Shown one piece after another: positions 3,356-14,848 of a DNA stretch of 38,857 nt (positions are counted from its first letter, which is position 1; each line of letters opens with the position of its first letter). The notes below the pieces were generated by a model, which did not search any database, was not told where the DNA came from, and was given only the letters and a program-made list of their open reading frames with translations. Source of the stretch: Aurantimonadaceae bacterium (GTDB lineage: Bacteria; Pseudomonadota; Alphaproteobacteria; Rhizobiales; Rhizobiaceae). The position numbers and the translations under genes were made by a program. The stretch is from assembly GCA_003232595.1 (NCBI GenBank), contig QIIJ01000298.1, forward strand, positions 1 to 38,857, read 5' to 3'.

Positions 3356-4705
3356 ATGGAGTCATCCAACAGTTCGGACGCAAAAGGTTCTGCCCGTCCT
3401 TTTGCGGTAACTTTTGCCTCGGTTTTCGCCATCGCCTGGCCGATGACAATCGCCTATATGACCACGCCGCTTCTGGGATTGGTCGATACGGCTGTTATCG
3501 GCCAATTGGGCAGTATTGCAGCCCTTGGCGGGCTGGCAATCGGGGCCATCCTGTTCGATGTTATTCTTGGCACTTTCAATTTTCTGCGCTCTTCCACCAC
3601 AGGCCTTAATGCCCAGGCATTGGGAAGTGATGATAAAGAAGAACAACGCGCCGTCTTTATCCGCGCTTTTGTGTTGGCCGTTGGCTGCGGGGTTGGCCTG
3701 CTTGTGGCGGGTCCACTGGTGCTTGAATTCGGCCTTTGGTGGATGGAGACAACACCAGCGGTTGCCGATGCCACGCGCGACTATTTCCTTGTGCGCATTT
3801 ATTCAACGCCCTTTGCCATGGCCAATTACGCCATACTTGGCTGGTTGTTGGGGCTTGGCCGCGCCGGACAGGGGCTTGCTATCCAAGTTGTATTGAATGG
3901 GATCAATATTGTCTTCTCAATATATCTTGGGCTGATGCTTGAACTTGGTATTGCCGGTGTCGCCTGGGCAACGGTGATTGGTGAAGGCGTTGCGCTGGTG
4001 CTTGGTATTTTTATTGTTGGTCGCCACATAGATTTGCGCAGTCTTCCGATAGTTTCTGCGCTCCGGAACCGCCACAAGATAATTGCATTGATGTCAGTCA
4101 ACGGCGATATCATGATCCGCTCTTTTTGCCTTATTCTGGCTTTTGCCTGGTTCACGGCGGAAGGAGCCAGACTGGGCGAGACGACACTGGCGACTAATGC
4201 GATATTGATGCATTTCTTTTTTTTGGCCGGTTATTTCCTCGACGGTTTTGCCACGGCCGCCGAACAACTTGTAGGCCGTGCCATCGGTGCCAATTATCGC
4301 CCGGCCTTTGACCGCTCTGTTCGTTATGCCACAATGAGCGGGTTTATTCTGGCCGGTTTTCTGACAACTGTGTTCCTTCTGTTTGGACCATTATTAATCG
4401 ATATTCTGACGGTTAACGAGATTATTCGCCAGCAGGCCCGGATTTACCTTCCATGGGCTGCCATCACTGCATTGACCGGTGTTGTTGCTTTCCAGATGGA
4501 CGGTGTTTTTATTGGTGCCACATGGTCTGCGGATATGCGCAACATGATGCTGTTTTCTCTTGGTGCCTATCTGCTGGTTATCTGGCTTGTGGTTCCGTCC
4601 TTTGACAATCATGGTCTATGGTTTGCATTACAGGTGTTTCTCGGCCTTCGCGGCGTTACGCTGTGGTGGAGAATGAAGGTGAATTTGCGCAGGCAATTCG
4701 GTTAA
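3356..4705 (+). CDS. MATE family efflux transporter (DinF-like subfamily)
   Basis: 449 aa with about 12 TM helices. The N-terminus FASVFAIAWPMTIAYMTTPLLGLVDTAVIGQLGS is typical of MATE/DinF proteins, and the two halves show internal similarity. Confidence 0.8.
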   Translation: MESSNSSDAKGSARPFAVTFASVFAIAWPMTIAYMTTPLLGLVDTAVIGQLGSIAALGGLAIGAILFDVILGTFNFLRSSTTGLNAQALGSDDKEEQRAVFIRAFVLAVGCGVGLLVAGPLVLEFGLWWMETTPAVADATRDYFLVRIYSTPFAMANYAILGWLLGLGRAGQGLAIQVVLNGINIVFSIYLGLMLELGIAGVAWATVIGEGVALVLGIFIVGRHIDLRSLPIVSALRNRHKIIALMSVNGDIMIRSFCLILAFAWFTAEGARLGETTLATNAILMHFFFLAGYFLDGFATAAEQLVGRAIGANYRPAFDRSVRYATMSGFILAGFLTTVFLLFGPLLIDILTVNEIIRQQARIYLPWAAITALTGVVAFQMDGVFIGATWSADMRNMMLFSLGAYLLVIWLVVPSFDNHGLWFALQVFLGLRGVTLWWRMKVNLRRQFG

Positions 4706-4797
4706 AACAGAAGTGGTTCGGTTTATCTGAACAGTTTCGCAAAAGTTTTTACCTGTACTTTTCTGAATTGTCAGAAACTCGAACTATCGGTCATACA

Positions 4798-5202
4798 ATG
4801 CAAATTAATTCGATAAACGGGCAAGGCGGCATCATTTCTGGAATATCCAGCGAAGTGAGCAAACCAAACTCCCAAAGTTCAACTGATACATTAAATGGGT
4901 TTCAGGCAGTGGTTCAATCACTTGACGTGGCAAGCAGTAATCCGGCGGCAATAAAAACTGCCGTCTTGGATAACCTTCGGGCTGATGGTGCCGGGATCAA
5001 CTCCAACCTGGACAAAACTGCGGTTTCCAAGGCCTTTGAAACCATGCTTGTTGCCCAGTTTCTTAGCCCTCTGTTTGCCGGGTCCGGTGCAAGCATGTTT
5101 GGTAGCGGTGTTCAGGGAGACATCACCAAATCGTTGTTAACTGATGCTATCGCTGAGGCTATCACAGAACGCGGTGGGATTGGCCTGGGTAAATTTATCT
5201 GA
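4798..5202 (+). CDS. flgJ: flagellar rod-assembly protein FlgJ, rod-binding domain only (no muramidase domain)
   Basis: 134 aa from ATG 4798; the ORF-track start at 4618 lies inside the MATE gene. The Rod_binding-type segment is KAFETMLVAQFLSPLFAG...MFGSGVQGDITKSLLTDAIAEAITERGGIGLGKFI. The stop overlaps the next start (TGATG). Confidence 0.75.
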   Translation: MQINSINGQGGIISGISSEVSKPNSQSSTDTLNGFQAVVQSLDVASSNPAAIKTAVLDNLRADGAGINSNLDKTAVSKAFETMLVAQFLSPLFAGSGASMFGSGVQGDITKSLLTDAIAEAITERGGIGLGKFI

Positions 5203-6204: not shown

Positions 6205-6957
6205 CTAACGCGACTGCTGCATGAAATAATTCACCTCCCGGATGAACAATGACAAGATATCATCACCAATCCAGGTCAACAAAATCAATCCCCCGGTTAT
6301 CAAAAATGGCGTGGAAACAAAATATATCGGCACTTGTGGCGTCAGTTTGTTTACCAGTCCGGCGATCAAGTTGAGTATGACCGCATAAATAATCACCGGT
6401 GCGCCGAGACGGACAACGGTATTGAAATACGCATCAAGATTGATGCTGATGGTTTCCACGAAACTTGAAATCGACAGCAATTCGCCGGGTGGATATATCA
6501 AAAAGGAATTTGCCAGAGCCAGGATAAAACTCAAATGCAGCCCGGTTGAGAAAAACAAGACCACTGCTGTGACATTAAACAATCCCGATAACACGGTTGA
6601 AGACTGATCGTCTCCCAGTGGTATGCCGGGAATTGGGCTGAGGCCAATAAACTGGGTTATCACCTCGCCCAAAAAGGATAGAGCTAAAAACATGAAGCGA
6701 ATCGGGATAACCAGCACCAGTGCGATAAACAGCTCGTTCAGTGACAAAATTACAAGCTGTCCAACTCCGGGCAAGCTGTTGATGCCAAGTTTTCCCTGCA
6801 CCAGCATAAATATGGAAAAGCTGATACCTATTGCAGCGAAAAGCCGAATACGAACAGCCACCTGGGCTGCAGAAAAGCCCGGTAAGATCATAAAACATGC
6901 TGATACCCGCATGAAAACCAGAAAGTATTCGATCAGAATAGGGCTTTGGATGATCAT
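6205..6957 (-). CDS. fliR: flagellar type III export apparatus protein FliR
   Basis: 250 aa polytopic membrane protein. The N-terminus IEYFLVFMRVSACFMILPGF is typical of FliR/SctT. Its start overlaps the flhA stop by 4 nt. Confidence 0.92.
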   Translation of the reverse strand: MIIQSPILIEYFLVFMRVSACFMILPGFSAAQVAVRIRLFAAIGISFSIFMLVQGKLGINSLPGVGQLVILSLNELFIALVLVIPIRFMFLALSFLGEVITQFIGLSPIPGIPLGDDQSSTVLSGLFNVTAVVLFFSTGLHLSFILALANSFLIYPPGELLSISSFVETISINLDAYFNTVVRLGAPVIIYAVILNLIAGLVNKLTPQVPIYFVSTPFLITGGLILLTWIGDDILSLFIREVNYFMQQSR

Positions 6958-9047
6958 TCGGCAATTGATCCAAGTATCTGCACCTCCAATCCGCGCGCAA
7001 TTTCCAGGTTGGACAGAACGGGCAGCGTCGGAAAAATCCTTTCAATGATCATGCGAATATAAGTTCGGCTTTCGGGAGACGTGGTTATGGCGAACATGTC
7101 ACCGCGGTCAATAAATTCCTGGATTTTTTCCCGAGCCAGATTTCCAAATTCCTCCAGCTCGACCGGCGCCATTTGAAACTCCGATATTTCACCACGGGCA
7201 TCCCGCTTGATGGCATCGGTGAAGGCCTTGTCCCATCGGCTTCCAAGCCGCAGAAGCTTCAGTTGACCGTCCTGTACAATTTCCCCGCATATTTGCTGCG
7301 ACAGGCGTGAACGAACATGTTCGACTATCTGTTCGCTGCGTTTCGAAAAGGGTGCAAATTCAGCGATCGCTTCCAGCAGAAGATTTAAATTGCGGATGGA
7401 GACCCTCTCCGCCAGCAGCAGCTTGAATACCGCCTGCAATCCGGAGAAAGTGAGATGGGTCGGACATATTTCCTCAACTAAACGTGTATATTCCTTGTCC
7501 AGGCCATCAATCAGTATCCTCATGTCTTTGTATGAAAACAACTGCGACAGATTGTTTCTGATCACCTCACTCATGTGGGTCAATATCTGTGACATTGGGT
7601 CTATTGTTTGATAGCCTTGGTGCTTGAGTTCAGTGACATATATATCAGCAATCAGCCATGCTTTGGCTCCGAAGGCGGGCTCGGTGATTTGTTCATATGG
7701 CACCGGAGGCGGTTGATCGCTGTTGGCGATCACAATCACATTCGTCAATGACACGGTTTCCGATGCACAAGTGGTTCCAAAAATCTTTACCTGATACCCT
7801 CTCGGGTCAATGGAAAGATCGTCAGAAACCTTGATCTCAGGGATAACGAATCCATATTGCTTGGCGAATTTTTTTCGCATACGGCTTACGCGGTATTCCA
7901 TTTCACCTTTCTCAAGAAGCAGTTTAGCTCCCAGTTGTTTGCCAAAAACCAGCTCAATCTCCGGCACTGTCAAAGTGTTCTTGATAGAATCCTGATGTTT
8001 CTCGCTCTGCTTTTCCTTTTCCTTCAATTCTTGATTTTGTTTTATCTCGGCTAATTCAAAACGTTTTTTGGGAATTATGTACGAGGTGGCACCCAACAAA
8101 CTTGCCAGAAGGAAAAAGGGGAAAAAGGGGAGACCAGGCGTGAGTGCAAAAATGGCCAGCAGCCCAGACGATACCATCAGTGCCTTTGGATAGTTGGCCA
8201 ATTGGTCCAGCACCGCCTGATCGGCCGAGCCCTTGTTGCCACCCTTTGAAACAAGCAAGCCAGCGGCCAGGGAAACTACCAGGGCAGGAATTTGGGACAC
8301 CAGGCCATCACCAACCGACAGTTTGGTGAAAACATCGGCGGCTTCACCAAGTTCCATATCGTGACGCAATACACCAATGATAATACCGCCAAAAATATTG
8401 ATTGCCGTAATTATCAGACCGGCAATCGCATCACCGCGAACGAATTTTGATGCGCCATCCATCGACCCAAAAAAGGAGCTTTCCTGCTCAAGTTCTTTCC
8501 GCCGGATCTGGGCTTCTTTTTCATCAAGCAGGCCCGCTGACAGATCCGCATCGATTGCCATCTGTTTGCCAGGAATAGCGTCAAGTGTGAACCGTGCGCC
8601 AACTTCTGCTATGCGGCCGGCACCTTTGGTTATCACCATGAAATTCACGGTTACCAGAATAATAAAAACGATCACGCCGATAACAAAGTCCCCGCCCATA
8701 ACGAACTCTGCAAAACCTTTGATAATGCCGCCTGCCGCATATTCTCCCTGATTGCCGTTCGACAAAATCAACCTGGTTGTTGAGATGTTAAGCGATAACC
8801 TCAGCATGGTCGCAATCAGCAAAACGGTAGGAAATGAGGAAAAATCAAGCGGCTTTTGTATCCATAGTGCAACCATCAATATCAAAACAGAAAGAGCGAT
8901 TGAAAAAGCAAGGCCAAGATCGATCAATATTGGTGGTATTGGTAAAAACAAAACGGCAAGAATGAACAGAATGCAAATCGCAAACATAACATCGCGATTA
9001 CCGTTTCCATAATCCAGTGCCGTCAGTGGTGATGTCTGCTCTGCCAT
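6954..9047 (-). CDS. flhA: flagellar export gate protein FlhA
   Basis: FHIPEP family with an N-terminal 8-TM domain (GAGRIAEVGARFTLDAIPGKQMAIDADL, FVRGDAIAG) and a large cytoplasmic domain. I start it at ATG 9047 (MAEQTSPL..., 697 aa), not at the GTG-initiated extension to 9110. Confidence 0.95.
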   Translation of the reverse strand: MAEQTSPLTALDYGNGNRDVMFAICILFILAVLFLPIPPILIDLGLAFSIALSVLILMVALWIQKPLDFSSFPTVLLIATMLRLSLNISTTRLILSNGNQGEYAAGGIIKGFAEFVMGGDFVIGVIVFIILVTVNFMVITKGAGRIAEVGARFTLDAIPGKQMAIDADLSAGLLDEKEAQIRRKELEQESSFFGSMDGASKFVRGDAIAGLIITAINIFGGIIIGVLRHDMELGEAADVFTKLSVGDGLVSQIPALVVSLAAGLLVSKGGNKGSADQAVLDQLANYPKALMVSSGLLAIFALTPGLPFFPFFLLASLLGATSYIIPKKRFELAEIKQNQELKEKEKQSEKHQDSIKNTLTVPEIELVFGKQLGAKLLLEKGEMEYRVSRMRKKFAKQYGFVIPEIKVSDDLSIDPRGYQVKIFGTTCASETVSLTNVIVIANSDQPPPVPYEQITEPAFGAKAWLIADIYVTELKHQGYQTIDPMSQILTHMSEVIRNNLSQLFSYKDMRILIDGLDKEYTRLVEEICPTHLTFSGLQAVFKLLLAERVSIRNLNLLLEAIAEFAPFSKRSEQIVEHVRSRLSQQICGEIVQDGQLKLLRLGSRWDKAFTDAIKRDARGEISEFQMAPVELEEFGNLAREKIQEFIDRGDMFAITTSPESRTYIRMIIERIFPTLPVLSNLEIARGLEVQILGSIAE

Positions 9048-9216
9048 CAATTTCTCTCTACATAATTTAAGTGGACCGGTGCCGATGAGATTAGCGGTCG
9101 AACCTTGCACGAACTTGCGGGAGCATCAGAAAGGATCTGTTCGAAAGTCACTTCTCAGCCATATCCCCGGGTTTTCATTCCGACACAGGGATTTTCTGCT
9201 GCTGGTCACGGATTGA

Positions 9217-10749: not shown

Positions 10750-11799
10750 TTATAAATAGTTCAGAATTGACAACGACTGAATTCTTGCGGTAACGGCGTA
10801 GGAGGCCTCGAGGCTCACAACAATCTGGTTAAGCCGGGTGGCGGCTTCATAGGAATCTACATCGGTTAAACTGGCAAGTTGTTGGTCCAGAATACTCTTC
10901 TGGTATTCCATTCTGTCATTGGCATTTTGAATACGTTTCTCAACAGTACCAATCTTTGCCTGCTCTGCCCCCAGTTCAATGACGTTTTCTGCCATTAACT
11001 GCAAAGCAGAGTTTGTAAGTTGATCGATGGTCGATGGCTTTAATTGCCCGTTGGCAAATTCGTTGATCAATACGGAAGCTGCGGTAATCTTGCGGAAGGC
11101 TTCTGCATTTGCAGTCGTTGGTGTTTCAACCAGTTCACGGGTTGAAATCTTCGACCGCATTCCGCGCTCCGAAGCACCGCTCCACATCGACTGCCAGTTT
11201 GTATCATTGAACAGGTCCATGAAAGGCCCGTCGATAAAAGCCTTGAGTGCAGCAGGCGTTATTGATTGCGCTGCCGGGTCTCCTGCCCAAAATCCAAATG
11301 CAGTGGTAAATGCATCCTGCACCGCAGTTATTGCAGGCGCTCCTGAAGCCGACTGATAATCGACCAGCGCCGCATTGTCGGTATTGATCCCGGAAAATAC
11401 ATATTCACCGTTAATCGTAGTGTTAACAGCCGAGGTCAATTCCTCCAACGCCGACTGACCGATCGTTTGCAACAAACTCTTGTCCAGCGATCCGTTGAGT
11501 TCCGCCGTAAGCTGCCCGATAAAATTATTAGCGCTCTCGATCATAGAACCCATAGCGACCTGCATGGTCGAAAGGCGGTTTTCTGCAAACGAGTTTGTGA
11601 TCTCAATTTGACTGATATATTGAACCTGCCTTTCCAGGGTTACGACCGATGATGTAAAATACCCGTATTTTTTCCCGATATCGGCGTAACGGCCGGTAAC
11701 TGCCTCCTTTTGCGCATCAATCAATTCACGTTGCAGATTGGCGGTATTCAATCTAAGATTGTTGCTCAGGGCATAGGTGGATATGCTGTCTAGTTTCAT
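10750..11799 (-). CDS. flgL: hook-filament junction protein FlgL (HAP3)
   Basis: 349 aa. The N-terminus (STYALSNNLRLNTANLQRELIDAQKEAVTGR) and C-terminus (ATRLNQIVVSLEASYAVTARIQSLSILNYL) are flagellin-like. It lies directly downstream of flgK. Confidence 0.88.
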   Translation of the reverse strand: MKLDSISTYALSNNLRLNTANLQRELIDAQKEAVTGRYADIGKKYGYFTSSVVTLERQVQYISQIEITNSFAENRLSTMQVAMGSMIESANNFIGQLTAELNGSLDKSLLQTIGQSALEELTSAVNTTINGEYVFSGINTDNAALVDYQSASGAPAITAVQDAFTTAFGFWAGDPAAQSITPAALKAFIDGPFMDLFNDTNWQSMWSGASERGMRSKISTRELVETPTTANAEAFRKITAASVLINEFANGQLKPSTIDQLTNSALQLMAENVIELGAEQAKIGTVEKRIQNANDRMEYQKSILDQQLASLTDVDSYEAATRLNQIVVSLEASYAVTARIQSLSILNYL

Positions 11800-11801
11800 A
11801 A

Positions 11802-13271
11802 TTACCCCGTAGCGTTTAAAAGCACAGTAAACATCTCATCAATCGCCGATATCAGCTTGGCAGAAGCCTGATAAGATCGTTCCACCTCCAGCAGTCGCGA
11901 CATTTCAATGTCAAGATTAGGTCCCGTTTCGTTCAGCAGCGTCTCCTTGTAGCGGATCGCCAACTCACTACTATAGCTTTTTGCGCCATGGGCGCTCTGC
12001 CTGCCGCCATTCAACCAATCCAGCGATGAAGAAGCAAAATCCAGAAGGCTCTGGCTTGCCGGCAGCCCGGCCTGCGGGTCAAAGCCAGACAAGGAGGAGA
12101 AAGCCGCCGAAAGATTGAGAAGCCGGTCGCCAAATCCTGCACCACCTGCTGAATTGTAGACATAATCGGCATCCCCGTTAATCCCGCCATCCCTTACCAA
12201 TTCAGGATCGCCACCCTGTTGAGGGTCAACCAGCGGATTAATCCGGATTGACATCGATATACCGGTTTCCAACATTGCGGACGTCGGAACTCCAGGTCCA
12301 CCGCTCCAGGTGAACAAACCTGCGGAGGTCGGCTTGGTTCCGGCGGGTGATTGATCATTTTCGGCAAATAATTCAATCAGTGACCGGGAAATTTCATCCA
12401 ACTGCTTTTGCTGCCGAACGAGAATATCGTCCCGCAGTTCCAGATTTCCGGCAATTCGCCCGGCGTCGATTGCCAAAGAGGCATTGCTGCCGTTTGCCGG
12501 AACGCCATCAATAAACAGCGTGCCACCGGTGGTTGCCGGACCATAGGAAGGCGTCGACTGAAATGACACCAGTCTTGGAACTTTTTCAAATAACAACAAT
12601 CCGTTGCTTGCCATGACCATGATGTCATTGTTTCCCCGTGGAACGACCTTCAACCCGATATCGTCAGAGAGTTCCGCCAGAATTTCGTCACGAACATCAA
12701 GACTGTCGAAAACATCATCGCCCATTCTTGTACCGTTGACAATTTGGTTATTTACAGTTTCCAGTTGGCCCAGCAGCCGGTTGATTGATGATACACTATC
12801 GCTGATTTGTCTGTCGGCCGTAGCACGCATGGAAAGTGTATCTTGGTAGAACTGGTTTAAGGATGTTGCGGTTGTTCTGGCCTGCTCGACCAGTGAAGAC
12901 AACACTGCGCTGTTTGACGGCGAAGCGGCAGCCAGCTCTGTTGCCTGCATCAGATCATTCAGCAAACCTGCCGGTGAGTATGAAAAGTTGTCGCCGCCCT
13001 GAAGGTCCACCAGGCGATCGAATCCGGCGGCAATAACATTGGCCCCGGCCGAATTGGCGGAAGCGAGAATTGATGCATCATAGACAGACCGATTGACATA
13101 TCGCTGGGTATCAACGCGGATTGTTCCATAAATGCCGGTTGAAACAACGGCTTCCCTGCGCACATAATTTTCATTACCCACGCCGGAGATATTTCTGGAC
13201 AGGATGGAAACCTGTTTTGCGTTGACAGCAATCGCATTGGTTGCCGTACGAAGGGCGTTAGTGAGCGTCAC
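11802..13271 (-). CDS. flgK: hook-associated protein FlgK (HAP1)
   Basis: 489 aa with a GTG start at 13271. The N-terminus is ALRTATNAIAVNAKQVSILSRNISGVGNENYVRR. The C-terminus is MSRLLEVERSYQASAKLISAIDEMFTVLLN, the rod/hook-family terminal heptads. Confidence 0.92.
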   Translation of the reverse strand: MTLTNALRTATNAIAVNAKQVSILSRNISGVGNENYVRREAVVSTGIYGTIRVDTQRYVNRSVYDASILASANSAGANVIAAGFDRLVDLQGGDNFSYSPAGLLNDLMQATELAAASPSNSAVLSSLVEQARTTATSLNQFYQDTLSMRATADRQISDSVSSINRLLGQLETVNNQIVNGTRMGDDVFDSLDVRDEILAELSDDIGLKVVPRGNNDIMVMASNGLLLFEKVPRLVSFQSTPSYGPATTGGTLFIDGVPANGSNASLAIDAGRIAGNLELRDDILVRQQKQLDEISRSLIELFAENDQSPAGTKPTSAGLFTWSGGPGVPTSAMLETGISMSIRINPLVDPQQGGDPELVRDGGINGDADYVYNSAGGAGFGDRLLNLSAAFSSLSGFDPQAGLPASQSLLDFASSSLDWLNGGRQSAHGAKSYSSELAIRYKETLLNETGPNLDIEMSRLLEVERSYQASAKLISAIDEMFTVLLNATG

Positions 13272-13273
13272 CT

Positions 13274-13560
13274 AGACCCTTTCTTGCTTACACGGAAGCA
13301 TTTGGCCGAATTTCCGCGTTTGCTGGCAAGGCGTATTTTCTGCCGTGGTCTGGATGACCACAAATGAAGCACTACAAAGCCCAGAAAGCGAGGAAAACCG
13401 TCCTCCGATGACCCGGATCAGTCCATCAGCTCGCCTGCCCTCGGGCTTGTCCCGGGGGTTGCGAAATTTGAACGATGAACCACATCGCCCTGAGCTTCGC
13501 GCCTTGCTGAATGAACTGATCTGGGTCATCAAATGATTCCGTGTAAGCAAGAAAGGGTCT
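13274..13560. repeat. 287-bp MITE-like element bounded by 24-bp perfect terminal inverted repeats
   Basis: agaccctttcttgcttacacggaa (13274-13297) is the exact reverse complement of ttccgtgtaagcaagaaagggtct (13537-13560). The pairing extends inward to 31 bp with one mismatch (13274-13304 vs 13530-13560). I see no convincing CDS inside. The element fills the flgE-flgK spacer. Confidence 0.7.
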
Positions 13561-13591
13561 GGGTTTATCACCGACCTGAGTTCGAGCACTT

Positions 13592-14848
13592 TTATCGCTT
13601 CAGATTGACCAATACGTCCATTAGTTCCGATCCGGTCTGAAATACCTTTGAATTGGCCGTGTAGCTCCGTTGCGACTCGATCATGATCGTTAGTTCCGTG
13701 GCCATATCAACATTGGATTCCTCCAGGGCATTGGCGATAATGCTGCCAAATCCAGAGGCTTCCGCGGTCCCGACCAGCACATCACCAGAATCCACCGTTA
13801 CCGAAAACGCGTTGCCCGGCAGTGCCTGAAGATTGTCCGGGCTTGGAACATTTGCCAAAGCTAATTGATAGATCGGCCTGGCATAGCCATTTTGGTATAT
13901 GCCGTATACCGTACCATCGCCGTTGACCTCAACCCGGTCAATGCTGGCTGGAGAACTGCCATTGGCCTGGGCAGACAGCACCTGATAATCTGTTCCAAGC
14001 TGACTGATACCGCTGATATCCAGTGACATTGTAGCGCCGCCGGGGACCGGAATACTTAAACTCGTCGAACCACCACCAGCTACATACCCGGTTGCCGGAT
14101 CAAAAATTATAGTCTCCAGAGCAGTCGGTCCACCGGAATAGGGAAAGGAACCATTGGTTGCGCCCAATGCATCGTAAGTCGCGACCTGCCAGGTATCAGC
14201 GGCTGTTTTGGCAAAATAAATATCGATGATCTTCTCGTTTCCCAAAGTATCGTAAGTCACTAAAGAAGTTTTTCCGGCATATTCGGAAGAAGCCACATTA
14301 TCTGAAGGTAAAGAACCAGCCGCTGCCACCGGCGCATTGGATGGCAGGTTGGGCAACAACACCCCTTCAGTAGTTGCTGCAGCCTTCAATGTTTGTAATC
14401 CGGTATTGATTGGCACAAGCCCGCCAAACCCTCCCACCACCGGCACCGCAGATGCGGTTGTGAGATCATATCCCATCAAGCTATGGCCAGCAGAATTGAC
14501 AAGATTGCCGATGTTATTTACCAGGAAAGAGCCAGCGCGCGTCAGGAAAGTATCACCCGCCCCGTCACGTACGATAAAAAGTCCGTCACCACTAATGGCA
14601 AGGTCTGAAGGCGAAGTTGTCGATTTGATAGCACCCTGATTGCTGATATCCAGACGTGTCGTGGTGCTGACGCTGCCTGATCGGTAAGAGCCGGCGTTGG
14701 TATCAAGAACCTGCGTATTGAATTCGACTTGCGAACGCTTGTATCCAATCGTGCCGGAATTTGCAATATTGTCAGCGACGGTTGCAAGCCTGCCTGCCTG
14801 TGCTGCCATTCCAGAAACGCTTGTTCTCATAATTCCAAACAGACTCAT
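13592..14848 (-). CDS. flgE: flagellar hook protein FlgE
   Basis: 418 aa. The N-terminus is MSLFGIMRTSVSGMAAQAGRLATVADNIANSGTIGYKR. The C-terminus is ESNVDMATELTIMIESQRSYTANSKVFQTGSELMDVLVNLKR. Confidence 0.95.
   Translation of the reverse strand: MSLFGIMRTSVSGMAAQAGRLATVADNIANSGTIGYKRSQVEFNTQVLDTNAGSYRSGSVSTTTRLDISNQGAIKSTTSPSDLAISGDGLFIVRDGAGDTFLTRAGSFLVNNIGNLVNSAGHSLMGYDLTTASAVPVVGGFGGLVPINTGLQTLKAAATTEGVLLPNLPSNAPVAAAGSLPSDNVASSEYAGKTSLVTYDTLGNEKIIDIYFAKTAADTWQVATYDALGATNGSFPYSGGPTALETIIFDPATGYVAGGGSTSLSIPVPGGATMSLDISGISQLGTDYQVLSAQANGSSPASIDRVEVNGDGTVYGIYQNGYARPIYQLALANVPSPDNLQALPGNAFSVTVDSGDVLVGTAEASGFGSIIANALEESNVDMATELTIMIESQRSYTANSKVFQTGSELMDVLVNLKR

Follow-up and report, generated by a model that had tools for sequence, protein, structure and literature searches.

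The Correia elements of Neisseria (CREE/NEMIS) are short, non-coding sequences of 100-200 bp that are bounded by long terminal inverted repeats (about 26 bp or more) and by TA target duplications, occur in many copies, carry IHF sites and outward promoters, and lie directly upstream of genes, where their repeats pair in the mRNA. The duplex that the terminal repeats form in the mRNA is a substrate of RNase III, and it alters the expression of neighbouring genes (PMC10969869; PMC2649163). A second group, the Rickettsia palindromic elements (RPEs), consists of mobile palindromes whose open frame is in register with that of the host genes they insert into (PMC10969869). RPEs lie within coding sequences, join the encoded protein, and are without long terminal inverted repeats. 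From another angle, structured start sites are known to open by upstream translation or by RNase III, as in coupled operon genes and in phage T7/lambda and adhE processing, and adjacent stop and start codons such as TAG-GTG are typical of re-initiation. Finally, Rhizobiales genomes harbour RIMEs, Sm-repeats and AB/C palindromes, which are palindromic repeats of mosaic build that lie between genes, also within operons. All three are mentioned in PMC2573895.

Here, we describe a palindrome that separates the flagellar genes flgE and flgK in a stretch of DNA of 38,857 nucleotides (the whole analysed stretch of 38.9 kb, hereafter the window). We read it as a non-autonomous, MITE-like element, about 295 bp long and bounded by terminal inverted repeats of 35 bp, that was inserted in the flgE-flgK spacer in such a way that its stem would bury the flgK start, a reading to which we assign a probability of roughly 0.6. 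Like the Correia elements, it appears short and non-coding, has long terminal inverted repeats and stands directly upstream of a gene, with repeats that would pair in an mRNA in which we infer the element to be co-transcribed. It shares no sequence similarity with Correia elements, however, shows neither a clear target duplication nor a sigma-70-like promoter, and, unlike theirs, its repeat would also provide a Shine-Dalgarno (SD) motif and part of the start codon. An RPE-like trait can be seen in an open frame of 105 codons (ORF105) that is in frame with flgK, with a single TAG between the two; yet the window element is intergenic, this stop keeps it out of FlgK, and it has no sequence relation to RPEs. 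As in translational coupling systems, the start would be locked in a structure until an upstream ribosome or a nuclease removes it, but here the structure would come from an inserted element, the "leader" ORF would be 105 codons of element sequence, and the relay is predicted from sequence. With the rhizobial repeats the element shares the character of an intergenic palindrome, and it has no match in PLSDB, in Rfam or, for the exact arm, in representative genomes, evidence that is indirect with respect to RIMEs.

The host genes are confirmed by Pfam as flgE (13592-14848), flgK (11802-13271, with a GTG start) and flgL (10750-11799), all on the minus strand, with FlaF, FlbT, FlgD and FlhA downstream of flgEKL and a regulator of the FtcR/Rem type and FliK upstream. 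The genes flgE, flgK, flgL, flaF, flbT and flgD are intact and have the lengths of their orthologues, and flgK starts at the conserved codon position (MTLTNALR…), with GTG here versus TTG or ATG elsewhere. The features on which the following paragraphs rely are, in the direction of the operon:

13592-13594, minus strand: stop codon of flgE, TAA, as read from the sequence.
13565-13591, minus strand: what probably remains of the ancestral flgE-flgK spacer, AAGTGCTCGAACTCAGGTCGGTGATAA; the homologous stretch of the sister clade reads …CATGTCGGTGGTAAT….
13272-13589, minus strand: ORF105, which opens with a GTG 2 nt past the flgE TAA and closes with a TAG that abuts the flgK GTG, in frame.
13270-13564, minus strand: the candidate inserted element (295 bp), with bounds set by the extended inverted repeat; missing from six orthologous loci.
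13530-13564, minus strand: 5′ arm on the operon strand, ACCCAGACCCTTTCTTGCTTACACGGAATCATTTG, with its exact 24-nt core at 13537-13560.
13407-13530, minus strand: inner branch of the predicted fold, closed by a 20-bp, 90% stem (13407-13426 / 13511-13530).
13417-13461, no strand assigned: GC-rich hairpin core, …GCCTGCCCTCGGGCTTGTCCCGGGGGTTG, with 15 aa identical at the peptide level to P0127, an ORF of another contig.
13289-13476, plus strand: stretch collinear with P0127 in two reading frames (13289-13372 at 54%, 13381-13476 at 69%).
13270-13304, minus strand: 3′ arm on the operon strand, CAAATGCTTCCGTGTAAGCAAGAAAGGGTCTAGGT, with its exact core at 13274-13297.
13269-13271, minus strand: start codon of flgK, GTG; the same codon is TTG or ATG in orthologues.

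Some observations concern the surroundings of these features. Within the first part of flgK, at 13139-13168 on the plus strand, stands a sigma-70-like promoter match (TTGAAA-18-CATAAT, 10/12), oriented antisense so that it would read over the start codon of this gene and into the element; the resemblance is one of consensus only, with 3 such matches versus 2.1 expected in shuffles. The longest FlhA ORF (6954-9110, minus strand) has 718 aa versus the 697 aa called in relatives, and its true start is probably internal, so that the 718 aa most likely reflect the choice of start codon and not a real extension. A MatE transporter ORF (3356-4705, plus strand) overlaps a Rod-binding-domain ORF (4618-5202, plus strand) by 88 nt in the mechanical ORF list, where the second probably starts later. 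At the edge of the flagellar cluster stand a Sel1-repeat/peptidoglycan-binding protein (46-2802) and a DUF3429 protein.

The arms of the palindrome form, by a wide margin, the strongest inverted repeat of the 38.9-kb window. Within this window the 24-mer AGACCCTTTCTTGCTTACACGGAA has two exact sites, 13274-13297 on the plus strand and 13537-13560 on the minus strand, and the earlier note, which had described these stretches as exact reverse complements of each other, was right on all 24 of the 24 positions; no third site of AGACCCTTTCTTGCTTACACGGAA is present in the window even when 3 mismatches are allowed, and none of 100 dinucleotide-preserving shuffles contains a match. The inward pairing, which the same note had put at 31 bp with one mismatch, was recovered at exactly that length (13274-13304 / 13530-13560, 96.8%), and a repeat finder extends the arms outward to 35 nt at 94% (33/35; 13270-13304 / 13530-13564), other inverted repeats of the window being at most 31 nt long at 74%, or shorter. 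This 35-nt repeat is well above chance expectation. Measured by its exact cores the element spans 287 bp, and by its extended arms 295 bp, with termini that read ACCYAGACCCTTTCTTGCTTACACGGAA.

The 3′ arm is the part that meets flgK. On the minus strand its exact core ends at 13274, 2 nt before the flgK GTG (13271), and it contains an SD-like AAAGGG (13277-13282) at a distance of 5 nt from this GTG, two placements that had been noticed before and that we confirm. The same arm also holds the TAG of ORF105 (13272-13274) and, as the last 2 nt of its extended form, the GT with which the flgK start codon begins. The earlier claim that AAAGGG is the sole SD of flgK did not stand, since an apparently ancestral SD-like GGTGAT (13567-13572, in the spacer remnant) persists directly 5′ of the hairpin.

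To place the palindrome in its evolutionary context, we compared six related loci, whose FlgK proteins are 80, 79, 77, 69, 66 and 62% identical to that of the window. Gene order is the same in 6/6 (regulator, flgE, flgK, flgL, flaF, flbT, flgD), and the flgE-flgK spacer, 320 bp long in the window, has lengths of 35, 35 and 36 bp in the nearest three lineages and of 17, 18 and 18 bp in the remaining, more distant three. Six orthologous spacers of 17-36 bp without the element thus face one filled site. The window FlgK is 77-80% identical to the sister clade, and both are 61-69% identical to three outgroups; since it groups with the 77-80% clade and the other three are outgroup to both, a gain in the window lineage is the parsimonious reading. 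Taken together, the spacers and the FlgK identities bear out the earlier view of the 320-bp spacer as the product of an insertion, and they indicate that the element is a lineage-specific insertion that followed the split from the nearest sampled relatives.

The comparison also suggests where the element landed. From the flgE stop to the 5′ arm there are 27 nt (…CAGGTCGGTGATAA), which can be aligned with …CATGTCGGTGGTAATATAAA, followed by TTG, in the sister clade; the flgE-side flank that joins the element reads …GGTGATAA. This alignment puts the element into the AT-rich 3′ portion of the old spacer (…GGTAATATAAA in relatives), with its insertion point between the old SD-like GGTGAT/GGTGGT and the flgK start codon. 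With regard to the empty sites themselves, the sister-clade spacers (L001:3415-3452, L003:4966-5003, L005:4965-5003) consist of 35-36 nt with a mini-ORF of 10-12 codons, whose start coincides with the flgE stop or closely follows it (TAA followed by TTG or by ATG) and whose TGA overlaps the flgK TTG (aaaTTGAcc). This mini-ORF hints weakly at an ancestral flgE-flgK coupling, three homologous spacers being worth about one observation. As a side observation on the FlgK family, the 90%-identity cluster to which the window FlgK belongs also counts P0121 among its members, a Logan protein of 54 aa that is unrelated to this FlgK in sequence and whose contigs (loci L008-L017) have nothing in common with the window; the protein collection seems to have clustered it in error.

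When set against the criteria for MITEs given in PMC10969869, the element has a length of 287-295 bp, below the limit of about 500 bp, terminal inverted repeats of 35 nt, long in comparison with the usual 4-30 bp, and an interior that appears non-coding and without a transposase. The 38.9-kb window as a whole encodes no transposase, and no parent insertion sequence (IS) was seen. As to composition, MITEs are typically AT-rich, whereas the element has 53% GC versus 48% in the window; it is the target that is AT-rich. No direct repeat that could represent a target-site duplication adjoins the 35-nt arms. A 5-bp direct repeat, GGTGA (13568-13572 / 13268-13272, minus strand), is separated from one arm by 3 nt and runs into the other, and its right-hand copy contains the flgK GTG, which conflicts with the ends of the 35-nt repeat. 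It could be the remnant of a decayed target-site duplication or a product of chance, and both readings need a coincidence at the 1-5% level. If GGTGA were the target-site duplication, the true ends of the element would be different ones and the ancestral spacer would have measured 20 nt, close to the 17-18 nt seen in the outgroups; the direct repeats that flank MITEs are described to decay with age (PMC10969869). Target-site models of the Tn3 type, of the TA type (IS630) and of the TAA type were considered as well and rejected, as the termini do not fit them.

Folding of the element yields on both strands a Y-shaped nested palindrome with further hairpins, and its interior is a unique sequence with nested palindromes, in which neither an intrinsic terminator nor a sigma-70-like promoter was found and in which inspection by eye revealed no sigma-54-like motif. 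Within the interior, the GC-rich core hairpin (13428-13460) recurs at 13370-13395 in inverted and degenerate form (ACAAAGCCCAGAAAGCGAGG at 13370-13395 versus ACAAGCCCGAGGGCAGGCGAG on the other strand), and a better copy of this inverted hairpin is apparently kept in P0127 (NPRFKPEGR, residues 58-66). On this basis, the family may consist of a duplicated, inverted hairpin module.

Further copies were sought in the window (the covered part of the host genome), in nine related loci, in GTDB representatives, in JGI metagenomes, in IMG/VR and in PLSDB. Low-stringency blastn over the window and the nine related loci returned only the element itself, the 21-mer of the arm had 0 exact matches in the 185,579 GTDB representative genomes, and the 20-mer of the arm had 0 in the JGI metagenomes. 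A core pattern degenerate at third positions gave 6 matches in JGI metagenomes, all of them attributed to chance and without blastn similarity, and 0 in IMG/VR; a single IMG/VR match to the 18-mer of the arm, which proved to be a lone 19-mer with neither a partner arm nor flanking similarity, was likewise discarded as chance, and a search of IMG/VR for loci related to P0127 gave none. Among the plasmids of PLSDB, which presumably include the S. meliloti megaplasmids and their RIMEs, neither the element (blastn) nor P0127 (tblastn) found a match.

A diverged relative came to light through the plus-strand ORF of the element (60/63 aa; ORF63), which IMG calls as a gene (P0125). Against 1.84 billion representative proteins, phmmer with ORF63 gave three matches: P0125, which is its own ORF; P0126, a tandem repeat of a Vespula wasp that we rejected as spurious; and P0127 (E = 2e-4), an unnamed 110-aa ORF on a different JGI/IMG contig of 7152 bp. 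In tblastn, residues 30-57 of P0127 correspond to 13289-13372 (54%), where the window frame has a stop codon, and residues 69-100 to 13381-13476 (69%), including 15 identical residues at 13417-13461, the hairpin core that is the best-conserved portion of the element family when the window element is compared with P0127. ORF63 and P0127 share 32 aa, beyond which the homology continues in another frame, and their N- and C-termini are unrelated; the N-terminus of P0127, which falls outside the element, has no relation to flgK sequence. The match reaches into the terminal arm, where P0127 is compatible with …ACACGGAATCA…, the variant present in the other arm of the window element, and the nucleotide identity of the P0127 copy to the element has a ceiling of about 80-85%. 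Since the collinear match crosses reading frames, what is conserved is the DNA and not a protein, and conservation of this kind would place the element in a dispersed family of at least two members. The match thus points to a second, diverged copy of the element in the P0127 contig.

Overall, the element is most probably a prokaryotic MITE, and the MITE/RIME-like label of the earlier note can be kept in part: size, terminal repeats, non-coding interior and one diverged copy elsewhere argue for it and the empty sites argue for an insertion, whereas the searches of the window, the nine loci, GTDB representatives, JGI metagenomes, IMG/VR and PLSDB yielded no further copy, the target-site duplication is not a clear one, and no parent IS was found.

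What the insertion might do to flgK was approached by folding, and here the idea that a long-range stem buries the flgK initiation region, raised before on inspection of the arms, is borne out in silico. The minus-strand RNA of 13200-13620 has a folding energy of -182.6 kcal/mol (z = -8.6 versus shuffles), and the two arms alone pair at -53.5 kcal/mol. The opening energy, that is, the cost of unpairing positions -15 to +13 of a start region, amounts to 31.2 kcal/mol for flgK in the window, versus 4.1-13.7 kcal/mol for flgK of the six orthologues, 4.5-11.7 kcal/mol for five neighbouring genes and 10.0 kcal/mol for the window flgK after deletion of the element in silico; that of the ORF105 start region is 7.4 kcal/mol. 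In the predicted ensemble the SD-like AAAGGG is unpaired with a probability of about 0.001, and the ancestral GGTGAT is mostly paired as well (probability unpaired about 0.2). The flgK initiation region is predicted, in other words, to be buried in a very stable stem. The two strands fold equally (-150.4 versus -153.1 kcal/mol), which gives no sign of selection at the RNA level and is expected of a palindrome at the DNA level.

From these observations a scenario can be proposed in which the MITE-like element would have landed between the ancestral GGTGAT and the flgK start and would be co-transcribed in the flgE-flgK-flgL message, where its stem would enclose the new SD-like AAAGGG and reach into the GTG, such that FlgK would be made only once the stem opens. 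The most likely opener would be a ribosome that ends at the flgE TAA, re-initiates 2 nt downstream at the GTG of ORF105 and translates this frame, melting the stem on its way, before it stops at the TAG and re-initiates at the adjoining flgK GTG, with AAAGGG correctly placed. Read-through of this kind and re-initiation at flgK are possible because ORF105 starts 2 nt past the flgE stop and its TAG abuts the flgK GTG. The relay is plausible, if not statistically compelling: dinucleotide shuffles yield an open frame across the spacer in 16% of cases, or in about 5% when a single frame is specified. The TAG of ORF105 arises from the outer mismatch of the repeat (CTAGG versus CTGGG), and a perfect repeat would yield TGG, fusing 106 residues to FlgK.

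Two other routes may be considered next to the relay. RNase III could cut the stem, a 24-35-bp duplex being a classic type of substrate for which the Correia elements offer a precedent, and this second route would not exclude the first. Alternatively, the ribosome-binding site could be a split one, in which the helix would bring together GGTGAT, which precedes it by 2 nt, and the GTG, which stands at its 3′ base; we rank this route lowest of the three, since GGTGAT is itself mostly paired. Mobility by transposition, the relay and any effect on the level of FlgK are what we infer from this picture, and an equally possible outcome is plain under-expression of FlgK, with the insertion as a tolerated passenger.

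This last thought leads to the alternative that survives best, according to which the element is a recent selfish insertion, tolerated or mildly harmful and with no adapted role, FlgK is under-expressed or flagellar function relaxed, and both ORF105 and the SD-like motif are coincidental. An open frame that 16% of shuffles equal, a fold without strand bias, the absence of the element from all relatives examined and a predicted opening energy of 31 kcal/mol, far in excess of that of expressed neighbouring genes, are all in keeping with such a passenger. However, flgE, flgK, flgL, flaF, flbT and flgD are intact and of orthologous lengths, so that the system does not look decayed, the start codon of flgK has remained at its conserved position, and the succession of flgE stop, 2 nt, ORF105 GTG, and TAG abutting the flgK GTG, which an SD precedes by 5 nt, is the arrangement that an insertion would require in order to be tolerated. 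On balance, we place this explanation on the unlikely side.

Decidedly less probable is that the palindrome has been co-opted as a translational gate, which would make FlgK strictly dependent on flgE translation via the ORF105 relay and TAG-GTG re-initiation, with the terminus of the element giving the SD and the start codon and with RNase III cleavage as a possible contributor. If this were true, the MITE would act as a built-in coupling device between the synthesis of the hook and that of the hook-associated proteins.

We give little credence to a native cis-regulatory RNA, or sRNA gene, that would have evolved in place to time flgK after hook completion and would not be mobile. The great stability of the structure (z = -8.6) and its position exactly at the flgK translation start are what such an RNA would predict, but the palindrome is missing from the sister clade and from all outgroups, a homologous copy seems to exist in a different sequence context, both strands fold equally, and the covariance models of Rfam 15 find no family in it, with no match at E <= 1 over 12800-14000 and none at the gathering score in the whole window.

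Still less credible is a small protein-coding gene flanked by repeats, be it the operon-strand ORF105 or, on the other strand, the ORF of 60/63 aa. In its favour, ORF105 is open across the whole spacer, the plus-strand ORF is called by IMG as P0125, and the codon-usage score of ORF63, at 0.17 per codon, reaches the low edge of real genes. Yet ORF105 has no homologue among 5.8 billion proteins, neither ORF matches a Pfam family, and ORF105 scores -0.12 per codon, whereas the real genes of the window, read in frame in stretches of 105 codons, never fall under 0.11; as for ORF63, P0127 is its sole relative, shares 32 aa with it and then shifts frame at a place where the window has a stop. The open frame of ORF105 may be due to chance given the 16% of equally open shuffles, and we rejected its significance as standalone evidence. 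ORF105 is probably not a gene, then, and possibly a relay for ribosomes across the hairpin, and the interior of the element reads as non-coding. The earlier note, which saw no convincing gene between the arms, is upheld here by the missing Pfam matches and ORF105 homologues and by a P0127 homology that crosses frames; its description of the 105-aa ORF as a mere filler of the gap holds in that it is not a gene, and falls short in that the frame connects the flgE stop to the flgK start, a suggestive trait at 16% of shuffles. Finally, a local inverted duplication that arose by chance, or else an artefact of assembly, which the single copy in the window might recall, is very improbable in view of the 0 matches in shuffles, the unique interior with its nested palindromes, the independent relative in another contig and the mid-contig position with intact genes on both sides.

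Returning to the MITE-like element with a stem that would bury the flgK start as the preferred reading, the event itself is of an ordinary kind, the insertion of a MITE-like element at a slightly unusual site. Its notable feature is a terminal repeat that appears to supply both the ribosome-binding site and the start codon, in combination with a read-through ORF that joins flgE to flgK. If the in-silico picture is right, a mobile palindrome has come to lie between the ribosome-binding site and the start codon of a structural flagellar gene, has replaced both with its own terminus and has locked them in a 35-bp stem. The effects of MITEs on expression are listed as promoters, IHF sites, RNase cleavage, gene disruption, sRNAs and terminators (PMC10969869), a list that the locus would extend by the capture and sequestration of a ribosome-binding site. 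Otherwise, it would represent another lineage-specific MITE-like insertion, here in an uncultured member of the Hyphomicrobiales. Under the first of these prospects, the locus would be a compact system for how bacteria tolerate such insertions, be it by a ribosome relay, by RNase III processing or by a split ribosome-binding site.
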